DNA of 64,000 nt. It comes from Candidatus Omnitrophota bacterium (lineage in GTDB: Bacteria > Omnitrophota > Gorgyraeia > Duberdicusellales > 4484-171). The position numbers and the translations under genes are program-made. Under the pieces are notes generated by a model. The model had not been told where the DNA came from. It searched no databases and saw only the letters and a list, made by a program, of their open reading frames with translations. Of the stretch, positions 1 through 9,814 are shown in pieces. The number at the start of each line of letters is the position of its first letter. The stretch's first letter is position 1. The stretch is from positions 36,491 through 100,490 of the forward strand of contig JAIPGM010000006.1 in the NCBI GenBank assembly GCA_021735655.1. Direction: 5' to 3'.

Positions 1-1209
1 TTCTACATGCTTATGCCCTAACAGTTCCTGGACTTCTCGAATATTAACCCCATTCATTAAAAGATGTGTTGCGAAGCTATGCCTGAGAGTATGCACGCTG
101 GCGCGTTTTATAATTCCGGCTTTCTTTACCGCAATAGCTACAATCTTTTGAACTGTATTGGGACTTATATGATGTCTTCGGATTTTACCACTCCTAGGAT
201 CAATTGAAAGTCGAGAAGATGGAAAAGCATACTGCCACCCCCACTCCTTAGCAGCTTTAGAATATTTGTGCTCTAAAGCATTCGGTAGATATACCTCTCC
301 ATAACCGGCAGCTTTATCTTCTTCGAAAATATTCTTAACTTGCTCTAAATGTTTTCTGAGAGAACTACCTAACGCCTGTGGCAGCATAGTGCTACGGTCT
401 TTATCCCCTTTTGCTCCGCGTAAAAATAAAATATTGCTCTCAAAATCAATATCCTGCACTCGCAAGCGCACGAGCTCCATAAGCCGCAACCCTGAACCAT
501 AAAGCAATTGCACAATTAATAAATCTTTATTCCTTAGTTGTTCAAATAACCCTTGTATTTCCTTAACTGACAAAACTGTTGGTAATTTAGGGCCCCGCTT
601 TGCGCGAACGGTTTCAGCTAAATTATTTACTTCTATTTTTAGAACATCTCGAAATAAAAATAAAAGTGCATTAAAGGCTTGGTTCTGGGTCGAAGATGAA
701 ACTCGACCCTCTATAGCTAGATATGTCAAATAATCTTTAACATCTTCTGGGGTTAGCTTCTGAGGATATATCTGCTTTCGCTTTCCTTTATTTAAATAAT
801 CAAAAAATCTCTTTGCCCATGTAACGTATGTCCTTTCTGTGCTATAAGAAAAATGCTTCACTCGAATGGCATTCGTCATTTTCTTTAACAAATCATCAAA
901 ATTAACATCTTCATCTTTAAATCTAGATACTTCGACAGATTTAATCTTATAAATTTGAGGTGGAGCAAAATTGTCTACATATATACTTATCGCTTCTTTG
1001 GCCTGCTGAAATTGCCACTCTTCAATTTTTATAATCTTTAGCTTTTCAAAAAACTTTTCTTTCTGTTCCTCAAGTGATGATTTTGGACGAATACAACAGA
1101 ATTTAAGAAATCTATCTACCCAATAGGCATAAAAAGGGGCTGTTTTTTCTGTAGCTAATTTCTTTGAAATTAAAAATCTTTGAAATTGAGATAACACACC
1201 TATTTTCAT
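1..1209 (-). CDS. intI: Integron integrase (IntI-type tyrosine recombinase), partial: C-terminus including the catalytic Tyr lies beyond the window edge. An alternative shorter start is at 879.
   Basis: Reverse-strand translation reads ...[21 protein letters not shown]...[13 protein letters not shown]...[38 protein letters not shown]...[36 protein letters not shown]. This contains the [12 protein letters not shown] recombinase box. It also contains the IntI-specific extra patch (compare IntI1 [37 protein letters not shown]). The ORF runs off the window at position 1. It is divergent from the cassette array. Confidence 0.8.
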   Translation of the reverse strand, partial: [403 protein letters not shown]

Positions 1210-1415
1210 GACTTTTCTTTCTTTGCCATAAATCCAATGATATACATAATATACATTTCCTGATATTATAGATAAATTACATAATTAAAGCAACATTTTT
1301 CTTCCAAAATCATTAAAAACATGCTAAAATTTTACTATATATATCAATAAAATATAAAAACATATATTATGCATATTAATTGTTAGATGTAAAATAAAAT
1401 GATAAAAGGAGAAAA
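1210..1415. promoter_or_regulatory. attI / cassette-promoter region between intI and the first cassette. Candidate Pc is TTGCCA (1223-1228), 18 nt spacer, TAATAT (1247-1252), reading toward the cassettes. Candidate attI crossover is G|TTAGAT at 1382-1388.
   Basis: AT-rich 200 nt spacer. The 3' end GTTAGATGTAAAAT matches the R' ends of the downstream attC sites (for example GTGTTAGATGTAAAATGAG at 5900). An AAAGGAG ribosome-binding site then precedes ATG 1416. Confidence 0.4.
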
Positions 1416-2699
1416 ATGAAGCAAATTTTGCGCTATTTTTTGGTTTTCTTTTCCCTAATTATATTTTTAAATTTATCTCCTTTTGCTTTTGGACAACAGG
1501 ACCAATCCTCCGGTGATTTTATTGATGGGAATTTTGAAGAAATAGGTCGTCTCAAGAAAGATTCTCAGAAACTTGATACCAGTAAAACCGGCGATCTGTT
1601 TATGGATACATGGATGGGGATATTAACTAGCCCAAAAGAATTTTTTTCTTGGAATACAAAAGGCGATGTCAAACTGGTCTATGATGGGAGTAACACACTG
1701 GTTGAATTGACACAGAGTAAAGAAGGGCCTGCGTCTATAAGCCAATTCTTTGGTTTTAAAAATAAAGATGCGTCAATTGAGTTTGATGTTAAAATTATAA
1801 AGAAAACTACCTCAGATGAATTAGAAGTGACAGTAGCAGATGTGGGTGGGCCTGCCTGGGGTAAACCCCCTGCAATAGAGATTCCGCTGGAGACATTTCG
1901 GCTCTCAACCATTTATCCGACTAAACATATCTCCATTGACCTTTCAAATAGTAAATATTTTTTAGATAAACAAGCTAAAGATGAAGCTAATGATATGGAC
2001 TTAGTTGATGCATCTATTTTTGGTACGATAACTTTTCGCTTGAAGGGAAATGCTGAAGAACCAACAACAATACGATTGGATAACCTTAAGGTTACTTATT
2101 ATAAAAAAGAAGGCGAAGTGAAACGTTATTATAAAGATAATCAGCCGAAGATAGATAAATTCTATAAAGATGGTAAGCAGGAAGGTCTGGAGAAGCGTTA
2201 TTATCGCAATGGACAGTTACAGTCGGAGCACCCATATAGGAATGGTAAACTAGACGGGATACAAAAGTATTATGCTATAGATGGAAAAGTCTGGGAAGAA
2301 ACGCCTTACAGAGACGGCAAGCGAGAGGGAACACAAAGACGTTACAGAAATGGGGTGCTGACGGAAGAAAGATTATATAAAAATGATAAGATGGTAGAAA
2401 TTAAAATTTATTATAAAACTGGTGAAATAAAATCAGAAGCAACGATTAGGAATGATAAGACAGAAGGGTCATCTAAAGAGTATTATAAAAATGGACAAGT
2501 AATGGAAGAACGTATCTATAGCGATAGCCAGAGAGTAGGCGTAACAAAGCATTACTATGCTAACGGACAGCTAAAAGCAGAGATACCTTACAAGAAGGAT
2601 AGAAAAGATGGCATTGCGAGGATTTATAATGAAGAAGGCAACTTAGTAAAAGAAGAAGTTTGGGAAAAAGATAAACTCATAAGTACTAGAGAGAAATAA
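1416..2699 (+). CDS. Cassette 1: secreted protein with about 12 MORN-variant (YwqK-family-like) repeats.
   Basis: N-terminal signal peptide MKQILRYFLVFFSLIIFLNLSPFAFG. C-terminal half is tandem ~23-aa repeats of form YYxNGQlxxEhPYrNGKxdG. Strong AAAGGAG ribosome-binding site. Followed by attC1. Confidence 0.7.
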   Translation: MKQILRYFLVFFSLIIFLNLSPFAFGQQDQSSGDFIDGNFEEIGRLKKDSQKLDTSKTGDLFMDTWMGILTSPKEFFSWNTKGDVKLVYDGSNTLVELTQSKEGPASISQFFGFKNKDASIEFDVKIIKKTTSDELEVTVADVGGPAWGKPPAIEIPLETFRLSTIYPTKHISIDLSNSKYFLDKQAKDEANDMDLVDASIFGTITFRLKGNAEEPTTIRLDNLKVTYYKKEGEVKRYYKDNQPKIDKFYKDGKQEGLEKRYYRNGQLQSEHPYRNGKLDGIQKYYAIDGKVWEETPYRDGKREGTQRRYRNGVLTEERLYKNDKMVEIKIYYKTGEIKSEATIRNDKTEGSSKEYYKNGQVMEERIYSDSQRVGVTKHYYANGQLKAEIPYKKDRKDGIARIYNEEGNLVKEEVWEKDKLISTREK

Positions 2700-2713
2700 A
2701 TATTAAATTACCC

Positions 2714-2788
2714 ATCTAACAAATCAATCCAGCCGACCCTCCCCGCGCGCTGGCGCGCTTGGTCGGGCGGCTGATTTTTGTGTTATCT
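2714..2788 (+). repeat. attC1 (integron cassette recombination site).
   Basis: ATCTAACAAATCAATCCAGCCGACC, then a GC palindrome gcgcgctggcgcgc, then GGTCGGGCGGCTGATTTTTGTGTTATCT. The flanks are imperfect inverted repeats with an unpaired GCG bulge. R'' is ATCTAAC and R' is GTTATCT. Confidence 0.75.
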
Positions 2789-2794
2789 TAAAAA

Positions 2795-3619
2795 ATGAAT
2801 CAAATACAAATGATAATAAACATAGGAATAGGTGTAATATCTGGCTTAATAACCTTCATTGTATGTGAATACATTCTTAAACCATATCTAAACCAAAAAA
2901 TAAATCCTAAAAAAGTTACTAATTTTTTTAGAAGTGGACCATTTTTGTTTGTCTTGGCTGTCCTGATTGCTTTTATCTTAAGTGCCTCCAACCAACAACT
3001 GAGAATGACATTATTTGGCCATGGCTTAGGCTCTTCTACTGTCGTTAGGGAATTAGAAAATTTATATATGTCAATTCCCGAAATGAAGGATGAAATAATT
3101 AAATCATCTGAGGGAAAGTTAAAGGAAAAAGATTTAATTAACTTGTGTCTGCAAGAAAAATTATATTATTTGAAATTAAAGCAAACCGGGAAATATTCCT
3201 ACAAACAAAATAACGCAAAGGAAGCTATTAATTTTTCAGGCAATCATAAAGTATTGTATCCGAATAGTCAGATTTACTCTGAAACAACATATACAAATGG
3301 CGAACGTTTAGATGCAAATTTTAAAGCTTATTATTACAATGGGGTCATTAGAGCAGAAATTATAACCGACAAATCTCAAATGAACGACACCACGAAAATT
3401 GTAAAATATTATTACAACAACGGCAAAATATGGTGCGAATATAGATATCACGACAACAAACACATGACTGGTATTATTTATGACAAGGAAGGTAATATAC
3501 TAGGTAAAGGAAAAGGTCTTTTTCTAGCAATTCTTATACCTGGTTATTTTGAAAAAATCGAAAGACAAGTTTACGACGTGCGCTACAATCCAAATACATT
3601 TTATGATTATGGATTATGA
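2795..3619 (+). CDS. Cassette 2: membrane-anchored protein with MORN-variant (YwqK-like) repeats.
   Basis: N-terminal TM helix. C-terminal repeats YTNGERLDANFKAYYYNGVIRAEI...KYYYNNGKIWCEYRYHDNKHMTGIIYDKEGN. Followed by attC2. Confidence 0.55.
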   Translation: MNQIQMIINIGIGVISGLITFIVCEYILKPYLNQKINPKKVTNFFRSGPFLFVLAVLIAFILSASNQQLRMTLFGHGLGSSTVVRELENLYMSIPEMKDEIIKSSEGKLKEKDLINLCLQEKLYYLKLKQTGKYSYKQNNAKEAINFSGNHKVLYPNSQIYSETTYTNGERLDANFKAYYYNGVIRAEIITDKSQMNDTTKIVKYYYNNGKIWCEYRYHDNKHMTGIIYDKEGNILGKGKGLFLAILIPGYFEKIERQVYDVRYNPNTFYDYGL

Positions 3620-3632
3620 GAAAATTAATAAA

Positions 3633-3705
3633 AGATAACAAAGCAATCCAGCGGACCAATTCCGCCGCTTCGCGGCTCCATTGGCCGCTGATTTCTATGT
3701 TAGAC
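3633..3705 (+). repeat. attC2.
   Basis: AGATAACAAAGCAATCCAGCGGACCAAT ... ATTGGCCGCTGATTTCTATGTTAGAC. Same architecture as attC1, with an extrahelical T in the left arm. Confidence 0.75.
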
Positions 3706-3732
3706 ATAAAAAAATAGAAAATAAGGAGAAAA

Positions 3733-4587
3733 ATGAAAATAAAAGCAAAGGAGCCGTGGTTGGCAGTTTTCTTGAATCGCTTGTTGCCCGGATTAGGGTA
3801 TCTTTACACGAAGAATTTAGTTAGAGCAATTATTGTATTTTTAGTCACCATATCATTAACGTTTATTGCAGTTTCGACATTGATCGCTTTTGCCAAAAAC
3901 GATACGACTGTTACATCCAAAGTATTATGGGGAGTCATTATTTTTGTTGCAGTCAATTTTATATTTAATTTCGCTATCTTGATAGATGGGTATTTGTGTG
4001 CAAGGAAACATAATCTTTCTAATGACGTAAAGCCTTCGCGCATGGGGCTTCGTATTTTTGCTATCATTGGAACTATAGTTTTATTGTTAACTGGAGGTAT
4101 CTCTATTTTTCCGGTTATCTACATAAGAACTCATTTGATACAGTTTTTTAAAATGCCTACCACATCAATGGCTCCAGCGCTAAAACTTAATGATAAAATC
4201 ATGGTAGATAAAAAAGCATACAATAGCAATAAGCCACAAAGAATGGAGATAGTTGTATTTCTTCCTCCTCACGATAATAGAAAGTATTACCTGAAGAGAA
4301 TTATTGGTTTACCAGGAGAAGAAGTGGAAATCAAGGACGGCAAGGTTTATATAAACAACGAGGTCATAACTAATCTATTCGTGACAAATAACTATTATTA
4401 TAATCAGGGTGATTACGCCAAAAAAGGTAAAAAGATAATCGTGCCCCCAAATAATTATTATGTTTTAGGCGACAATAGCGTTTCAAGTTTGGACAGTAGA
4501 TTCTTTGGATTTGTTCCCGAAAAAAATATAACAGGAAAAGTAGTTAAAATATATTGGCCTCCTGAAAGATCAGGAAGAGTTAAATAA
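3733..4587 (+). CDS. Cassette 3: signal peptidase I (S26 family) with an N-terminal multi-TM, TM2-like domain.
   Basis: S26 boxes are present: PTTSMAPAL (catalytic Ser), YLKRIIGLPGEEVEI (catalytic Lys) and GDNSVSSLDSRFFGFV. N-terminus AVFLNRLLPGLGYLYTKN plus 3-4 TM helices resembles a TM2 domain. Confidence 0.7.
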   Translation: MKIKAKEPWLAVFLNRLLPGLGYLYTKNLVRAIIVFLVTISLTFIAVSTLIAFAKNDTTVTSKVLWGVIIFVAVNFIFNFAILIDGYLCARKHNLSNDVKPSRMGLRIFAIIGTIVLLLTGGISIFPVIYIRTHLIQFFKMPTTSMAPALKLNDKIMVDKKAYNSNKPQRMEIVVFLPPHDNRKYYLKRIIGLPGEEVEIKDGKVYINNEVITNLFVTNNYYYNQGDYAKKGKKIIVPPNNYYVLGDNSVSSLDSRFFGFVPEKNITGKVVKIYWPPERSGRVK

Positions 4588-4594
4588 TAAAAAT

Positions 4595-4678
4595 GTCTAA
4601 CAAGTCGATCCAGCGGACTTAAAAGCGCCGCCAATTAAAGCGCAAAGCGCTTTTAAGCCGCTGATCTTGATGTTATGA
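4595..4678 (+). repeat. attC3.
   Basis: GTCTAACAAGTCGATCCAGCGGAC ... GCCGCTGATCTTGATGTTATGA. Conserved flanks and variable palindromic core. Confidence 0.7.
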
Positions 4679-4688
4679 GAAAAATAAA

Positions 4689-5186
4689 ATGAAAAAAATA
4701 AATAAAATTTTCTTTGTTTTAATTTGCGTTCTTTGTTCTGCGCAATTAGCACTTTATGCAGAATATAATTCAACCCTCTTAAAACATCATATACAATTTT
4801 CTCCACCTACCGGTTGGAATCAAATTTCACTTGGCCCTTTTGCCGCAGATATAGAAGGAATTGCATTCCGCAGCCCTGATGAGAAAGCGGTAATTACCGT
4901 ATCCTTGCCCAAAAAAACTAATTTTATTTCGTTTCATGGTGCTCTTATATTATTTCGTTTAAGCAAAAGGCCAAAGGAAGAAAAAATAACATTTTGTGAT
5001 GAGTCATGCTATATTTTTGATTTTGAACAAATCAATAAAAATAATATAAAAGTACTGACAAAAACCTATAAATTTTTAAAGAAAAACAAACTATATACAA
5101 TCAGCTATTATTCATCTCCCAATGAATATCGACAGTATTTACCCGAATTTAAGAAGGCGTTAGCAACGTTTAAAATTATTGAATAA
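4689..5186 (+). CDS. Cassette 4: secreted hypothetical protein.
   Basis: Signal peptide MKKINKIFFVLICVLCSAQLALYA. No recognisable domain. Flanked by attC3 and attC4. Confidence 0.5.
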   Translation: MKKINKIFFVLICVLCSAQLALYAEYNSTLLKHHIQFSPPTGWNQISLGPFAADIEGIAFRSPDEKAVITVSLPKKTNFISFHGALILFRLSKRPKEEKITFCDESCYIFDFEQINKNNIKVLTKTYKFLKKNKLYTISYYSSPNEYRQYLPEFKKALATFKIIE

Positions 5187-5191
5187 ATGTC

Positions 5192-5276
5192 TCATAACAA
5201 AGCAATCGAGCGGACAATCCTCGCCGCTAAATAGAATTCGGGAAAGCTCGGCTTGCCACTCATTTTTATGTTAGAC
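5192..5276 (+). repeat. attC4.
   Basis: TCATAACAAAGCAATCGAGCGGAC ... GCTCGGCTTGCCACTCATTTTTATGTTAGAC. The 3' arm has diverged more than in the other sites. Confidence 0.65.
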
Positions 5277-5288
5277 GAAAATAAAAAA

Positions 5289-5828
5289 ATGATTAAAAAG
5301 ATAATAGTAATTATTTGTTTTAGTTGCATAATCTGTTTAAATTTAGCATATTCTAAATATGTTGACCCAGACGCGATTGTTAGGATAACACGCAAAATTA
5401 CTCAAAGAATTTACAAAGATATAATTTCAATTAAAGACGAGTATGAAGAATTGAAGGGTTTTGATGAAAACTTTTATGGTAAAGGGACGAGATTCCAATA
5501 TCGCATAGTTAGTCCCACAATCGAATATATTTATTGTCCTGGTACATACAATCAATCTTATGAACGAGTTATGGAATTGTATTGCAACCCTCAACCCCCT
5601 GCTATTCATCTAAGGTTAGTATTCCTTAGCGCTCCTTGTGGCACAAACAAGTGCGACATAGTTAGCATTTGTCCGGATGGAATCGAAGCCCAAATTTATA
5701 TCGAAGAAATTGATCGTTATCTAATATTCAGTCAGCGTAGTGGAAATGCTGAGCTTGATACAAAACTTATGGAAATTTTCCGCAAACACACAAAAAAATA
5801 CAAAACAAAAGAAATACCTTGGGAATAG
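5289..5828 (+). CDS. Cassette 5: secreted Cys-containing hypothetical protein. The start is reassigned to ATG 5289; the ORF-track start at 5253 lies inside attC4.
   Basis: MIKKIIVIICFSCIICLNLAYS signal peptide immediately downstream of the attC4 GTTAGAC. In frame with the track ORF. Confidence 0.5.
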   Translation: MIKKIIVIICFSCIICLNLAYSKYVDPDAIVRITRKITQRIYKDIISIKDEYEELKGFDENFYGKGTRFQYRIVSPTIEYIYCPGTYNQSYERVMELYCNPQPPAIHLRLVFLSAPCGTNKCDIVSICPDGIEAQIYIEEIDRYLIFSQRSGNAELDTKLMEIFRKHTKKYKTKEIPWE

Positions 5829-5832
5829 GCTC

Positions 5833-5908
5833 ATCTAACAAGGCAATCCAGCGGACCTTACCTCGGCCCTAACGGGCTTCGGCAAGGCCGCTGATTTTTG
5901 TGTTAGAT
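5833..5908 (+). repeat. attC5.
   Basis: ATCTAACAAGGCAATCCAGCGGACC ... GGCCGCTGATTTTTGTGTTAGAT. Confidence 0.75.
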
Positions 5909-5970
5909 GTAAAATGAGATCACTAGATGAAAAAAATATTTCTATTAACATGCTATTATAGGAGGGGTAT

Positions 5971-6315
5971 ATGAAAAAAATTTTATTGTGGATGGGTTTT
6001 ATAATAAACCTTTTAGCATTCTTAGGTATTGCCTGCTATGGGTCATGGTCTGTTTGGGCTGGAATACTAAGCATTTCTAAATCAGAATATGCAAATATGT
6101 ATATCGTTTTCGGAATAGTTCCTGTTTTAATAAGCATTCCTTTTAATATCTTTATGAATCTTTGCTTGAACTCAATTCTGGATAAGAAGAAAAGATTCCC
6201 AACAAAATGGGTTATTTTTTCCCAATCAATCATATTTATTTTGACACCAATCGCTCTACTTACTGGGATTGCAGATTTAATTTCAGATGCATGGAGTTTT
6301 TTTACACTGCGTTAG
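5971..6315 (+). CDS. Cassette 6: small multi-TM membrane protein.
   Basis: 114 aa with about 3 hydrophobic helices. GGAGG ribosome-binding site. Followed by attC6. Confidence 0.45.
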   Translation: MKKILLWMGFIINLLAFLGIACYGSWSVWAGILSISKSEYANMYIVFGIVPVLISIPFNIFMNLCLNSILDKKKRFPTKWVIFSQSIIFILTPIALLTGIADLISDAWSFFTLR

Positions 6316-6357
6316 ATACCGTGCAAGTAATTAAAATTATTTAGGAAATTAAAAAAC

Positions 6358-6435
6358 TTCTAACAACTCAATCCAGCTGACCCTTTGACTCGGCCTTTCA
6401 GGCCTCGCTCAGGGCAGCTGATTTTTATGTTATGT
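6358..6435 (+). repeat. attC6.
   Basis: TTCTAACAACTCAATCCAGCTGACCC, then GGCCtttcaGGCC, then AGGGCAGCTGATTTTTATGTTATGT. There is an extrahelical T in the left arm. Confidence 0.75.
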
Positions 6436-6477
6436 GAAAATAATAAAAACATTCTCGCACAAAAAAAGGAGGAGAAA

Positions 6478-6831
6478 ATGGACAAGAAAAAAACAGATTG
6501 GACAAAACCAAGCTTGATAATGCTCGGGATTGATGTTCTGGCGCTGTTCATTATGATGATCGTTTTGGGAAATCTTGTTAATAGATTTAATGAATTATAC
6601 AGTCAATTCAGCATTGAATTATCACCTATTGCACAATTTAGCTTAACCGGATATAAAATATTTTTTCTACTGCTTTTAATTGGGCTTTTGGGCAAAGAGT
6701 TTTTGAAAAATAAAAAGGCAACATTCATAATAAATATATCGGCACTAGCTGTTACCCTTTTTATATTTGTGCCTTTTATAATTTTAGGAATATTTTTTCC
6801 TTTGTTTAACTTAACAAGCATGGGGGGATAA
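6478..6831 (+). CDS. Cassette 7: small membrane protein. The start is reassigned to ATG 6478; the track start at 6385 lies inside attC6.
   Basis: AAGGAGGAG ribosome-binding site 6 nt upstream of ATG 6478. Product MDKKKTDW... is 117 aa with 3 TM helices. Confidence 0.5.
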   Translation: MDKKKTDWTKPSLIMLGIDVLALFIMMIVLGNLVNRFNELYSQFSIELSPIAQFSLTGYKIFFLLLLIGLLGKEFLKNKKATFIINISALAVTLFIFVPFIILGIFFPLFNLTSMGG

Positions 6832-6851
6832 ATTTAAAAGTTTTAATAATC

Positions 6852-7026
6852 ACATAACAAGACAATTCAGCCAACCTTCATCCGTTGCCTGTTGGGTTGG
6901 CTGGTATGCCGAACCCTTCATAATAACAAAATGCTTCGCATTTTAAGTATATGGATTCGGCATAGTTCGACTAAGTATTTTTGCTCGCAAAAATGCCAGT
7001 CTCATTAGCTGATTTTTGTGTTATAG
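6852..7026 (+). repeat. attC7, atypically long and composite (about 175 nt).
   Basis: Canonical left flank ACATAACAAGACAATTCAGCCAACC is followed by GGGTTGGCTGG. A roughly 105-nt insert follows, with two extra hairpins (TATGCCGAA...TTCGGCATA and ATTTTTGC..GCAAAAAT). The conserved right flank GCTGATTTTTGTGTTATAG then ends the site. Confidence 0.6.
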
Positions 7027-7049
7027 GAAAATAAAACGGAGGAGTTAAG

Positions 7050-7322
7050 ATGGAAAATGTAAAAAAAATATATAAAGAAGGAGTAGTAAAGGGTGTTCGT
7101 TATTTTGTTATTACATTATGGGTTAATTTTCTATGCATTCCGTTGTACATGATAAAAAATTTCTTTGAGCCAGAGCAGGGATGGAATTTTCAAGAACACA
7201 CGTTATTAATTATTGGTTTCTGTATTCTAGTTGTTGTATATTTACCATTTGCTGTTTATTTGGCATCGAAAAGATCAAACCAACTGAATACTCCTATATT
7301 GAAAACAAATATTTCGATATAA
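7050..7322 (+). CDS. Cassette 8: small membrane protein (90 aa).
   Basis: GGAGG ribosome-binding site. Two hydrophobic helices. Flanked by attC7 and attC8. Confidence 0.45.
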   Translation: MENVKKIYKEGVVKGVRYFVITLWVNFLCIPLYMIKNFFEPEQGWNFQEHTLLIIGFCILVVVYLPFAVYLASKRSNQLNTPILKTNISI

Positions 7323-7327
7323 TATTT

Positions 7328-7402
7328 GTATAACAAGGCAATCCACCTGACCATACTCGCCGCTTTTAGCGGCTCGTCTGGCCGGTGATTTTTGTGTTAT
7401 GT
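7328..7402 (+). repeat. attC8.
   Basis: GTATAACAAGGCAATCCACCTGACC ... GGCCGGTGATTTTTGTGTTATGT. Confidence 0.7.
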
Positions 7403-7413
7403 GAATATAAAAT

Positions 7414-7986
7414 ATGAATAAAATTGACCTTTTATTTATAGTCTGTCTTCTAGCCTTACGTTTTCTACCTAGAAAATCAGCAAAATATAGATACTATTGG
7501 GTGTTTCCTTTATTAGTCTTTTTTTTAGCTATCGGTATCCGAATTAATTCTAAAATCGAGAGTCGGAAACGTTCAGAAAGAATTCAAGAGCTAGAAAGCA
7601 ATCTTAACGCTTTGCGCGATTATAGCTCTATTGCAAAACTTAATATTTTAGGCTTACCTGCTCGTGCAGGTTCAGGCATAAAATTATCTACTCCAATTTC
7701 AACTTCGCTAGAGAATGCAATAATTGAAAAGGATGGCAAATATTTCCCCACGTGCAGCAAGGAAGCGGAAGAAAAATTTAAGCAGACTATAAAATCTTAT
7801 CCACGATTTCCATTTTCATACTATGGCTTAGCCGTCTGTCTCAGGAGTAAAGAAGATGAAGCTTGGAAGGATTACGCAAATCAAGCCATAGAAATATTTA
7901 AAAAAACTATCAGCATTAAAGATCATAATTCTGGGCACGACCAAGCAATGAAAGAATTAATCAGATATTTAGAAGAAATAAATTAA
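7414..7986 (+). CDS. Cassette 9: membrane-anchored hypothetical protein (190 aa).
   Basis: N-terminal TM segments followed by a charged or coiled region. Flanked by attC8 and attC9. Confidence 0.45.
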   Translation: MNKIDLLFIVCLLALRFLPRKSAKYRYYWVFPLLVFFLAIGIRINSKIESRKRSERIQELESNLNALRDYSSIAKLNILGLPARAGSGIKLSTPISTSLENAIIEKDGKYFPTCSKEAEEKFKQTIKSYPRFPFSYYGLAVCLRSKEDEAWKDYANQAIEIFKKTISIKDHNSGHDQAMKELIRYLEEIN

Positions 7987-8003
7987 AACTAGGTAATTAA
8001 AAC

Positions 8004-8085
8004 ACATAACAAAGCAATCCACCTGACCCTCCTCGCGGCTTCCTGAGACCGCGGGCTCGTCGGGCAGGTGATTTTTGTGTTAGGA
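8004..8085 (+). repeat. attC9, the last attC in the window.
   Basis: ACATAACAAAGCAATCCACCTGACCC ... GGGCAGGTGATTTTTGTGTTAGGA. There is an extrahelical T in the left arm. Confidence 0.75.
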
Positions 8086-8156
8086 GGTAAAAATTTACGC
8101 AAAATTTTCTTTCTTTGCCAAGATTAGAATGCTATAATTGTTTTTAGGAGATAACT

Positions 8157-8888
8157 ATGTTCTGGATTTGGATAATGATTATTATGATAGTAATGGCCGC
8201 TGGGGTTGTAACCTTAGCTCTCCTGCCGACCTCTAAAGAATTGGCTTATTTAGAAAAATTACGAAAAATAGCTGATGATTTGCTTTATAGACTAAAAAAC
8301 ACCTTAAGAGAAGCCTGGAAAGAAAAGAAAAAACTTCCACTACCACTTGTAATTTTGGGGGCTGTCTGGATATTGAATGGCTTATATATAAGCATAAGTA
8401 CTTTAATGACCCCTTCTCAAATCACAAAACTAGAGACTCTAGCTGGTATATTCAGGATCTTAAGCATCGGTTGGATTATTATTGGGGTAACTTTATTTAA
8501 CGGCTATATTTTAAGTAGAAAATTTGCCTTTATCGCCGCAGGAATAGTAATTAGCCTTGGTATTGCTGTTATTGCAGTACCACCGCTTACCCAAGAAGAA
8601 TATCTTCTGCAACAATATGAAATATATCTACAAAATCAACAGTATCAACAAAATACTCTAGGAATTAATGAATATGTAACCTCGCGGCTGGTAGATCCTG
8701 GCGAAGGTAGGCCTACGAAAGCTGAGATAACCAAAGAACAAGCTATAGCTATAATCAATATGCTTATTGCCCTGATTACGATACTTTATCTAATTACTCC
8801 GAAAGCTAAAAAATATTTTGGTATCGAAAAGGAGCAATCTTTTTCATTTAAAGAGGGAATTGGTAGTTCATTTCGTCGCTACCGCTAA
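8157..8888 (+). CDS. Multi-TM membrane protein with a Q-rich segment. It is the first gene after the last attC; it may be an attC-less terminal cassette or the chromosomal boundary.
   Basis: 243 aa with several hydrophobic helices and a QQYEIYLQNQQYQQN stretch. No attC follows it. Its 3' end overlaps era convergently by 4 nt. Confidence 0.45.
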   Translation: MFWIWIMIIMIVMAAGVVTLALLPTSKELAYLEKLRKIADDLLYRLKNTLREAWKEKKKLPLPLVILGAVWILNGLYISISTLMTPSQITKLETLAGIFRILSIGWIIIGVTLFNGYILSRKFAFIAAGIVISLGIAVIAVPPLTQEEYLLQQYEIYLQNQQYQQNTLGINEYVTSRLVDPGEGRPTKAEITKEQAIAIINMLIALITILYLITPKAKKYFGIEKEQSFSFKEGIGSSFRRYR

Positions 8889-9814
8889 TCCAACCAGTAG
8901 CCTAATTCTTTTAATATTCGAGGACGTTCTTGCCAATCTTTTAAAACTGTAACCCAAATATCTAAAAACACTTTCTTGCCATATATCTTTCCGATCTCAA
9001 GACGCGACTCAATTCCAACATTTTTAAGTATTTGGCCATTTTTACCGACAACTATTTTTTTCTGAGAATCCCTTTCTACATAAATATTCGCCTTTACGTA
9101 TACGACCTTTTTTTTATCCTTTATTTCAGAAATCTCAACTGCCAAGGAATGCGGTAACTCCTCATCCAACTGTAAAAATAACTTTTCGCGTATTATGTCA
9201 GCAACCCTAAATTTATCAGGAAAATCAGTTAAAGTCTTAACATCGTAATAAGCTTGAGCTACCGGCAAGATTTCCACCAAAACATCTCTCAACTTGTCGA
9301 TATTTTTCCCAGTCTTAGCTGAAAGCGGAATATAATATTCTAAAAAACTATCCTTCCCAGCCTTCTTAGACTTCTCTTCCCACAAAGCCATATAATCATT
9401 AAGGAACTTTACTCCTTTATCCACTTTGTTAAGCACAATTATGGTTTTTACTTTTTGAGTTGTGATAATTTTCATTAGGGTTTCCTCTTCCTGCCCGGGT
9501 TTGCGGGAAAGATCAACCACGTAAATTATTAAATCACACCCTTCAATAGATCTTTTAGCTATCGTATTAAGATGAGAGCTTAGTTTATCTTTAAACGAAT
9601 GGATTCCCGGAGTATCGACAAAAATTGCCTGGGCATCTTTTAAATTCATAATTCCCCTTATTTGATGCCGAGTTGTCTGAGGAATGCTAGACATAATACT
9701 TATCTTATCCCCAACCAAAGCATTAAGGAGCGTTGACTTTCCTACATTCGGACGACCCAAAATTGCTATAAAACCTGATTTAAAATTTTTACTAATCATA
9801 GTTAATCCTTCCAA
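8885..9814 (-). CDS. era: GTPase Era.
   Basis: ILGRPNVGKSTLLNALVG (G1), DTPGIH, NKVD and a C-terminal KH domain. Confidence 0.9.
   Translation of the reverse strand: MEGLTMISKNFKSGFIAILGRPNVGKSTLLNALVGDKISIMSSIPQTTRHQIRGIMNLKDAQAIFVDTPGIHSFKDKLSSHLNTIAKRSIEGCDLIIYVVDLSRKPGQEEETLMKIITTQKVKTIIVLNKVDKGVKFLNDYMALWEEKSKKAGKDSFLEYYIPLSAKTGKNIDKLRDVLVEILPVAQAYYDVKTLTDFPDKFRVADIIREKLFLQLDEELPHSLAVEISEIKDKKKVVYVKANIYVERDSQKKIVVGKNGQILKNVGIESRLEIGKIYGKKVFLDIWVTVLKDWQERPRILKELGYWLD

Follow-up and report, generated by a model that had tools for sequence, protein, structure and literature searches.

A probable accessory type I signal peptidase with an N-terminal membrane module, carried as a single-gene integron cassette in Candidatus Omnitrophota

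Introduction

The type I signal peptidases of bacteria (SPase I; E. coli LepB, SipS and SpsB, MEROPS S26A) share a sequence profile, a Ser-Lys dyad, a Box E, a common fold and a membrane anchor that precedes the catalytic domain. We have found all of these features, the fold and the anchor by prediction, in a protein encoded in a metagenome-assembled genome (MAG) of Candidatus Omnitrophota (locus-tag prefix K9L86), within a stretch of 64,000 nt that we call the window throughout. Its gene is the third cassette of an integron. The protein, here called the cassette peptidase, differs from the bacterial SPase I in having some 100 extra residues at the N-terminus, a module of the DUF6677/DUF5683 type, and also in being cassette-borne and apparently accessory instead of housekeeping. 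We consider it rather likely that this is an accessory, probably active type I signal peptidase, mobilized as a single-gene cassette of a chromosomal integron.

Signal peptidases have been found on mobile elements before. The plasmids pTA1015 and pTA1040 carry the gene of SipP, an SPase I of Bacillus. SipP is also encoded, for example, on the plasmid pS499 and, like the gene described here, is a full SPase I paralogue located on a mobile element besides the chromosomal copies (PMC5243856). The cassette peptidase differs from it in the vehicle, an integron cassette and not a plasmid, in the Omnitrophota host and in the added N-terminal module. An initial annotation of the window had called a housekeeping-type secretion enzyme on a mobile cassette unusual, which is a fair description, but the novelty is mild given that the plasmid-borne SipP is already known (PMC5243856). 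Our search of the literature returned no report of an SPase I or S26 gene as an integron cassette. Thus, what we describe is a known enzyme on a known vehicle, new in its combination with an unstudied N-terminal module. Outside clinical isolates, integron cassettes are mostly of unknown function.

Other relatives of the S26 family are also pertinent. SipA of Streptococcus pyogenes and SpsA of Staphylococcus aureus are catalytically inactive S26 homologues. They have the S26 fold, and many of the relatives that bear the module of the cassette peptidase are also devoid of the Ser and/or the Lys. In contrast, the cassette peptidase keeps the dyad, and the link to pilus operons typical of SipA was not seen here. 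The S26 proteins of the TraF and SodX types are single-substrate enzymes carried together with their substrate, whereas the cassette peptidase scores below the cutoffs of both models and has no partner genes nearby. The N-terminal region is comparable to the TM2, DUF5683 and DUF6677 modules, since a KEPWLAV..PGxGxxY motif is followed by two transmembrane (TM) helices and the homologues match these profiles, although the cassette peptidase itself has only a sub-threshold match to DUF6677 and none to TM2. To our knowledge, no function is known for any of these three families.

The signal peptidase gene is an integron cassette

The gene is a genuine single-gene integron cassette, the third in an array of nine attC sites that adjoins an integron integrase (IntI). 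There are attC sites on both sides of it, the whole array is co-oriented, and an attI-like site is found alongside the integrase gene, so that the cassette location proposed in the initial annotation holds. The elements that define the cassette and the integron are the following.

3700 to 4672, forward strand: cassette 3, 973 bp, a single open reading frame (ORF) with its own attC; the crossover is after the G of both GTT cores
3636 to 3702, forward strand: attC of cassette 2, which bounds the peptidase cassette on its upstream side (R' GTTAGAC at 3699-3705, crossover after G3699)
4598 to 4675, forward strand: attC of cassette 3 (R'' GTCTAAC at 4595-4601, R' GTTATGA at 4672-4678)
1382 to 8082, forward strand: whole cassette array, with nine attC
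1382 to 1388, forward strand: attI-like core GTTAGAT at the array start, alignable to the attC repeats at their R' ends
2717 to 2785, 5195 to 5273 and 5836 to 5905, forward strand: attC sites 1, 4 and 5
6361 to 6432, 7331 to 7399 and 8007 to 8082, forward strand: attC sites 6, 8 and 9
1 to 1209, reverse strand: intI, the integron integrase gene, of which the N-terminal 403 codons are present, cut by the window start (from translation)
1223 to 1250, forward strand: candidate Pc promoter of the cassettes (TTGCCA-16-CATAAT), located in the intI-attI interval, a consensus match only (consensus scan, 10 of 12 matches)

All nine repeats are on the forward strand and have the attC layout, with an R'' ending in TAAC and an R' that starts with GTTA, L boxes that pair but leave some bases bulged, and a centre that varies. 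In the consensus structure of the repeats, six of the 17 pairs show compensatory double changes. As single-stranded DNA, the attC at 3636-3702 folds into a hairpin of -20.7 kcal/mol (z -5.33) and the one at 4598-4675 into one of -23.4 kcal/mol (z -5.76), and none of 200 shuffles folded as well as either. A covariance model trained on eight of the nine repeats gives these two sites 79 and 72 bits, respectively, scores that are high by construction since the model was built from the array itself. The same model recovers the remaining repeat, an unusually long attC, at 6850-7029 (33 bits), and elsewhere in the 64 kb it detects only weak shadows on the reverse strand. The strict RYYYAAC/GTTRRRY scan detects a single one of the nine sites, which were located by a relaxed scan. 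The 973-nt spacing of cassette 3 was also seen within a family of repeats.

The complete IntI, a protein of 450 residues, is found on the same contig in another assembly (L001:6125-7477, reverse strand) and reaches 395.7 bits with TIGR02249 (cutoff 265). It has about 106 additional N-terminal residues ahead of the TIGR02249 match, and Pfam matches the SAM-like N-terminal domain in two separate places, which suggests that the N-terminal domain of this integrase is duplicated. The seventh attC (6855-7023), with 169 nt, is more than twice as long as the other eight (67-79 nt) and may have an insertion inside or be two fused sites.

A complete S26 signal peptidase with an intact dyad

The single ORF of cassette 3 codes for a complete S26 protein with an intact dyad and an intact Box E. 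Its features are listed here.

3723 to 3728, forward strand: Shine-Dalgarno AAGGAG, 4 nt upstream of the peptidase ATG (read from the sequence)
3733 to 4587, forward strand: gene of the S26 signal peptidase I with its N-terminal module, 284 amino acids, identical to MCF7908348.1 (ATG start, profiles)
3733 to 4032, forward strand: N-terminal module, residues 1-100 (AlphaFold2 model, hydropathy, conserved columns and DUF6677 match)
4042 to 4137, forward strand: the peptidase's own membrane anchor, residues 104-135 (AlphaFold2 helices 104-120 and 122-135)
4165 to 4167, forward strand: codon (TCA) of the nucleophile Ser145, within TTSMAPAL (alignment to S26 proteins)
4294 to 4296, forward strand: codon (AAG) of the general base Lys188, within YLKRIIGLPGE (alignment to S26 proteins)
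4468 to 4500, forward strand: Box E GDNSVSSLDSR, residues 246-256, with Ser252, Asp254 and Arg256 (alignment)

The initial annotation had read a full S26 signal peptidase from three motifs, SMAP, KRIIGLPGE and Box E, and all three are present. The profile Peptidase_S26 (PF10502) matches residues 123-275 with an E value of 5.8e-43 and 147.2 bits (cutoff 22.9), and the protein scores 157.9 bits with TIGR02227 (sigpep_I_bact, cutoff 47), both well above cutoff. On the other hand, it is far below the cutoffs of the equivalog models for the E. coli-type LepB, for TraF (42.9 bits, cutoff 100.25) and for SodX, the Ni-SOD maturation protease (43.8 bits, cutoff 63.25). In the alignment, the columns of Ser145 and Lys188 are occupied by S and K in 70 of 71 plain S26 relatives, that is, those without the module. 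We take Met141, Pro142, Thr143, Met146, Leu150, Tyr186 and Leu187 to be the equivalents of the S1-pocket residues of E. coli LepB, and these positions are conservatively kept.

Searching the PDB sequences with the cassette peptidase retrieved the signal peptidases of B. anthracis, E. faecalis, E. coli and S. aureus. An AlphaFold2 model, obtained with 49 homologues, had a mean predicted local distance difference test (pLDDT) score of 87.1. When this model was compared with the PDB by Foldseek, the top matches were E. coli LepB (1t7d, E 1.5e-10) and S. aureus SpsB, and S. pyogenes SipA (4n31) was also among the structural matches.

The host genome almost certainly has another signal peptidase

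We found by phmmer no other S26 gene in the 64-kb window. A canonical LepB of 188 amino acids with an intact dyad (P0029, MCF7907976.1) is located on a contig of 278,835 bp, and its accession precedes that of the cassette peptidase by 372 protein accessions. On the contig of the cassette peptidase (100,490 bp), the accessions follow the gene order, with the endings ..336 for the ketoacyl synthase KS410, ..346 for cassette 1, ..348 for the peptidase, ..349 for cassette 4 and ..385 for pheT. Besides, cassette 4 has the locus tag K9L86_05720, which corresponds to roughly gene 1144. Since the accessions run in gene order and fit this locus tag, we place both proteins in one assembly, and the host MAG almost certainly has the separate canonical lepB that the initial annotation had proposed to look for, in the same accession and locus-tag series as judged by the numbering. 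Omnitrophota genomes generally have a plain LepB of about 188 residues. The presence of this separate LepB in the host MAG would make the cassette peptidase an accessory enzyme.

The catalytic domain is most likely of local, Omnitrophota origin, according to several sequence comparisons. Its mean identity was 54 % to the plain Omnitrophota LepBs and 42 % to the fusions with two modules, and in a neighbour-joining tree the clade of the cassette peptidase (P0001) groups with the plain Omnitrophota LepBs. A scan of one genome per species gave 55 relatives, nearly all Omnitrophota LepBs, that align over residues ~128-284 with 40-52 % identity; some of them are deposited as 'uncultured Planctomycetia'. 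The GC content of the cassettes (0.33-0.35) is near that of the flanks (0.35-0.40), which points in the same direction. One difference from the host-type LepB P0029 is a segment of 12 residues after box B, not present in the cassette peptidase.

The N-terminal membrane module

The initial annotation had described the N-terminal part as a 130-residue multi-TM region with a TM2-like first helix. A membrane module is indeed present, but the TM2 label was not sustained: PF05154 gives no match to the cassette peptidase even at E <= 1, and we have rejected this assignment. The only N-terminal profile match is to DUF6677 (PF20382), with an E value of 0.0057 and 17.7 bits, below the cutoff of 24.3. 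Among the 49 module-bearing homologues, 38 match DUF6677 and 38 match DUF5683 (PF18935) at E <= 0.01, while only six match TM2, and in the wider set of module matches TM2 was found in 20 of 149. Since the homologues match DUF6677 and DUF5683 far more often than TM2, 'TM2-like' is loosely right for the family without being the closest label.

In the AlphaFold2 model the module consists of the KEPWLAV...LLPGLGYLY segment with interfacial helices at residues 8-17 and 21-25, two TM helices (residues 29-55 and 62-96) and a tail with the pattern D..Y.CA.K.N. The predicted TM helices of the protein are three, plus the short interfacial PGLGY segment, and not four, and the last of the three is the anchor of the peptidase itself: the helix 104-135 aligns with the sole TM helix of the canonical LepB P0029, and the Pfam S26 match begins at residue 123. 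Lys and Arg are concentrated at the N-terminus and in the loop 85-107. This distribution and the hydropathy fit a predicted topology in which the N-terminus would be inside and the catalytic domain outside. The conserved columns of the module in the 49 homologues (K6, E7, P8, W9, G20, G22, Y25, D85 and N94) are all present in the cassette peptidase.

When residues 1-105 were compared with 1.84 billion cluster representatives, 259 matches were obtained. Peptidase_S26 is present as well in 114 of the best 149 of these 259, and most of the others are short modules standing alone, which indicates that the architecture of module plus S26 is widespread. It is found in at least 114 clusters at 50 % identity, mostly from Omnitrophota and cyanobacteria-like lineages, and the members of cyanobacterial type have two copies of the module. 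We found no literature on this architecture, on DUF6677 or on DUF5683.

Genomic contexts of the closest relatives

We have analyzed the surroundings of the nearest relatives of the cassette peptidase. P0003 (63 % identical, L009:1464-2318) follows an attC at L009:1344-1443 (29.6 bits, E 1.9e-5), on a contig that also has a HicB-like gene and one more attC. Like the cassette peptidase, P0003 is cassette-borne. Finding such a close relative behind an attC on an unrelated contig would fit with the peptidase gene being mobile as a unit. On the 3' side of P0003 there is a lone GTTAGAA core without a full attC. P0004 (58 %) is surrounded by small ORFs of the same orientation, and the only attC-like sequence upstream of it is a weak remnant (13.3 bits, E 0.41). 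P0006 has no detectable attC. The covariance model of the array attC gave no convincing sites on the contigs L005, L008 and L002.

A different situation was found for P0005 (48 %; MAG GCA_030692055.1, L002:5990-6910), which is clearly not a cassette. Its gene lies between those of the ketoacyl synthase KS410 and an acyl carrier protein (ACP), as the sole insert within an operon of fatty-acid/polyketide type. The genome described here has the same operon, KS416-KS410-ACP, with no gene between KS410 and ACP (L065:11200-11270). In GCA_030692055.1, the genes of P0005 and of the ACP share the start ATGGCCTTAAA(A/G)GAA (MALKE). The insertion is thus marked by a duplication of the first five ACP codons, the peptidase using a copy of the ACP start. 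Apart from the peptidase itself, no gene is shared among the five independent contexts, those of the array and of L002, L005, L008 and L009, and as there is no neighbour common to the contexts compared, the peptidase gene seems to move alone.

Loss of the dyad in the module-bearing family

Two sequence sets were used to follow the catalytic residues, the word-index matches (P0001-P0120) and the representatives at 50 % identity (P0252-P0400). Among the word-index matches, the Ser-Lys dyad is kept in 14 of the 49 module-bearing proteins versus 70 of the 71 plain ones (Fisher p 9e-18, with shared ancestry ignored). The independent set of 50 % identity representatives gave 60 of 115 module-bearing proteins with the dyad. 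Therefore, the dyad has been lost in 35 of 49 and 55 of 115 relatives, respectively. More than 25 different residue combinations are found among the dyad-less members of the set of 115, which indicates many separate losses. Actually, the dyad-less members look like folded pseudo-enzymes and not like decaying genes, since the Ser and Asp of Box E are kept in 48 of the 49 module-bearing word-index matches.

Variation at the nucleophile extends to the nearest clade, where P0001 to P0007 have S, S, A, T, S, G and T at this position. P0003 has Ala for the nucleophile Ser (KVRTRAMVPTL). The cassette peptidase belongs to the half of the family that keeps the dyad. From these alignments, the module-bearing S26 proteins look like an undescribed family rich in pseudo-peptidases.

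Proposed role of the cassette peptidase

The cassette peptidase would be transcribed with the array from the Pc-type promoter and would insert into the membrane with the N-terminus in and three TM helices, its catalytic domain facing the periplasm as in LepB. The S1-pocket positions that have been kept are consistent with the cleavage of signal peptides of the Ala-X-Ala type. Its activity would add to, and not replace, that of the 188-residue LepB of the host. The catalytic domain would derive from the Omnitrophota LepB lineage, joined to a two-helix membrane module of the DUF6677/DUF5683 type whose most likely effect is on the placement of the enzyme in the membrane or on the access of substrates. 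For the host, the benefit would most plausibly be an extra or altered capacity for signal-peptide processing.

Some points weigh against this proposal. The nucleophile is not conserved in the nearest clade, P0001-P0007, and the dyad is kept in only 14 of 49 and 60 of 115 module-bearing proteins, so that catalysis may not be what selection maintains. The second lepB of the host is a strong inference drawn from accession and locus-tag numbering, and not a direct reading of the assembly, and a binning error in the MAG may also be involved.

The first two of these points lead to the possibility, unlikely in our opinion, that the function of the family is not proteolytic. The protein would then be a membrane-bound binder of signal peptides or N-termini with a chaperone, assembly or regulatory role, like SipA, and any activity here would be residual or incidental. 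The loss of the dyad in so many module-bearing proteins that preserve Ser and Asp of Box E, its retention in nearly all the plain relatives, the Ala at the nucleophile position of the cassette-borne P0003 and the appearance of SipA (4n31) among the structural matches are all in agreement with this. However, Ser145, Lys188, Ser252, Asp254, Arg256 and the pocket residues are all kept in the cassette peptidase. The dyad is also retained by about half of the family, which speaks for activity being preserved in a large part of it. Slightly more doubtful is the broader idea that the KEPWLAV-PGxGxxY module plus S26 constitutes a distinct class of membrane proteins, as yet uncharacterised, in which the module would gate or redirect the signal-peptide groove, about half of the members being non-cleaving binders and half specialised peptidases, traded on cassettes. 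If this were true, the cassette copies would be evidence for the horizontal exchange of an adaptive function that remodels the envelope, for example by controlling which exported proteins mature or by providing a decoy for SPase-targeting agents.

A further possibility, suggested in the initial annotation for secreted cassette proteins, is that the enzyme is dedicated to processing the secreted proteins, or also the membrane proteins, that the adjacent cassettes encode, in the manner of the accessory peptidases of pilin or sortase type. All ten ORFs of the array region (window 1416-8888) have at least one N-terminal hydrophobic segment and are for this reason predicted to be secreted or membrane proteins, and in cassettes 1, 4 and 5 this segment resembles a cleavable signal peptide. 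Cassette proteins are in general enriched in signal peptides (16.1 % versus 6.8 %; PMC10661359). The suggestion was not supported by the comparison of contexts, and we regard it as improbable: the peptidase has no partner gene common to the array and the contexts of its relatives, the cassettes are independently moving units with one attC each, P0005 is alone inside a fatty-acid/polyketide-type operon, and the host has its own LepB. In addition, the S1-pocket positions look canonical and not specialised, judging from the published structures of E. coli LepB.

A role in resistance is very improbable. In this case the cassette would provide an extra or insensitive copy of the target as an adaptive bypass against natural SPase I inhibitors such as the arylomycin-type lipopeptides. 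Cassettes often encode resistance functions, as is generally known (PMC10661359), and tolerance can in general be gained through an additional copy of the target. The search for genes of inhibitor biosynthesis, other resistance, conjugation or Ni-SOD near the peptidase cassette found none. Phe138 is located seven residues before the nucleophile, at what we take to be the equivalent of Pro84 of E. coli LepB, the arylomycin-resistance position, and the finding, by visual inspection, of Phe where the resistance proline would be expected is the reason for the low weight that we give to this option. Even harder to believe is that the gene is a housekeeping lepB that merely adjoins the array. The lack of another S26 gene in the window would be in its favour, but the gene has attC sites on both sides, inside the array, the canonical 188-residue LepB is found 372 accessions earlier, and Omnitrophota generally carry this plain form.

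An accessory and probably active signal peptidase thus remains our preferred reading. It would be a clear case, from a little-known phylum, of a core-type secretion enzyme that was duplicated, acquired an extra membrane module by fusion and came to be carried on a mobile cassette. The practical consequence of the cassette is modest, most likely some extra signal-peptide processing capacity. The family-level loss of catalytic residues is a more interesting lead than the cassette itself: with the dyad missing in about half of a widespread S26 architecture, a candidate pseudo-protease family becomes available that can be tested experimentally.

Other genes of the array

The other cassettes also have some features worth describing. 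Cassettes 1 and 2 both encode proteins with MORN_2 repeats (YwqK-like). The MORN protein of cassette 1 (1416-2699) has an identical sequence in MBU2473129.1, MCF7908346.1 and MFH1362795.1, so that several MAGs have captured either this one cassette or one and the same organism. At the other end of the array, an ORF of 243 amino acids with multiple TM segments (8157-8888) follows the last attC (8007-8082) without an attC of its own and is convergent with the gene of the GTPase era (8885-9814, reverse strand). Either this ORF is the terminal cassette, with its attC lost, or the chromosome proper begins with it.

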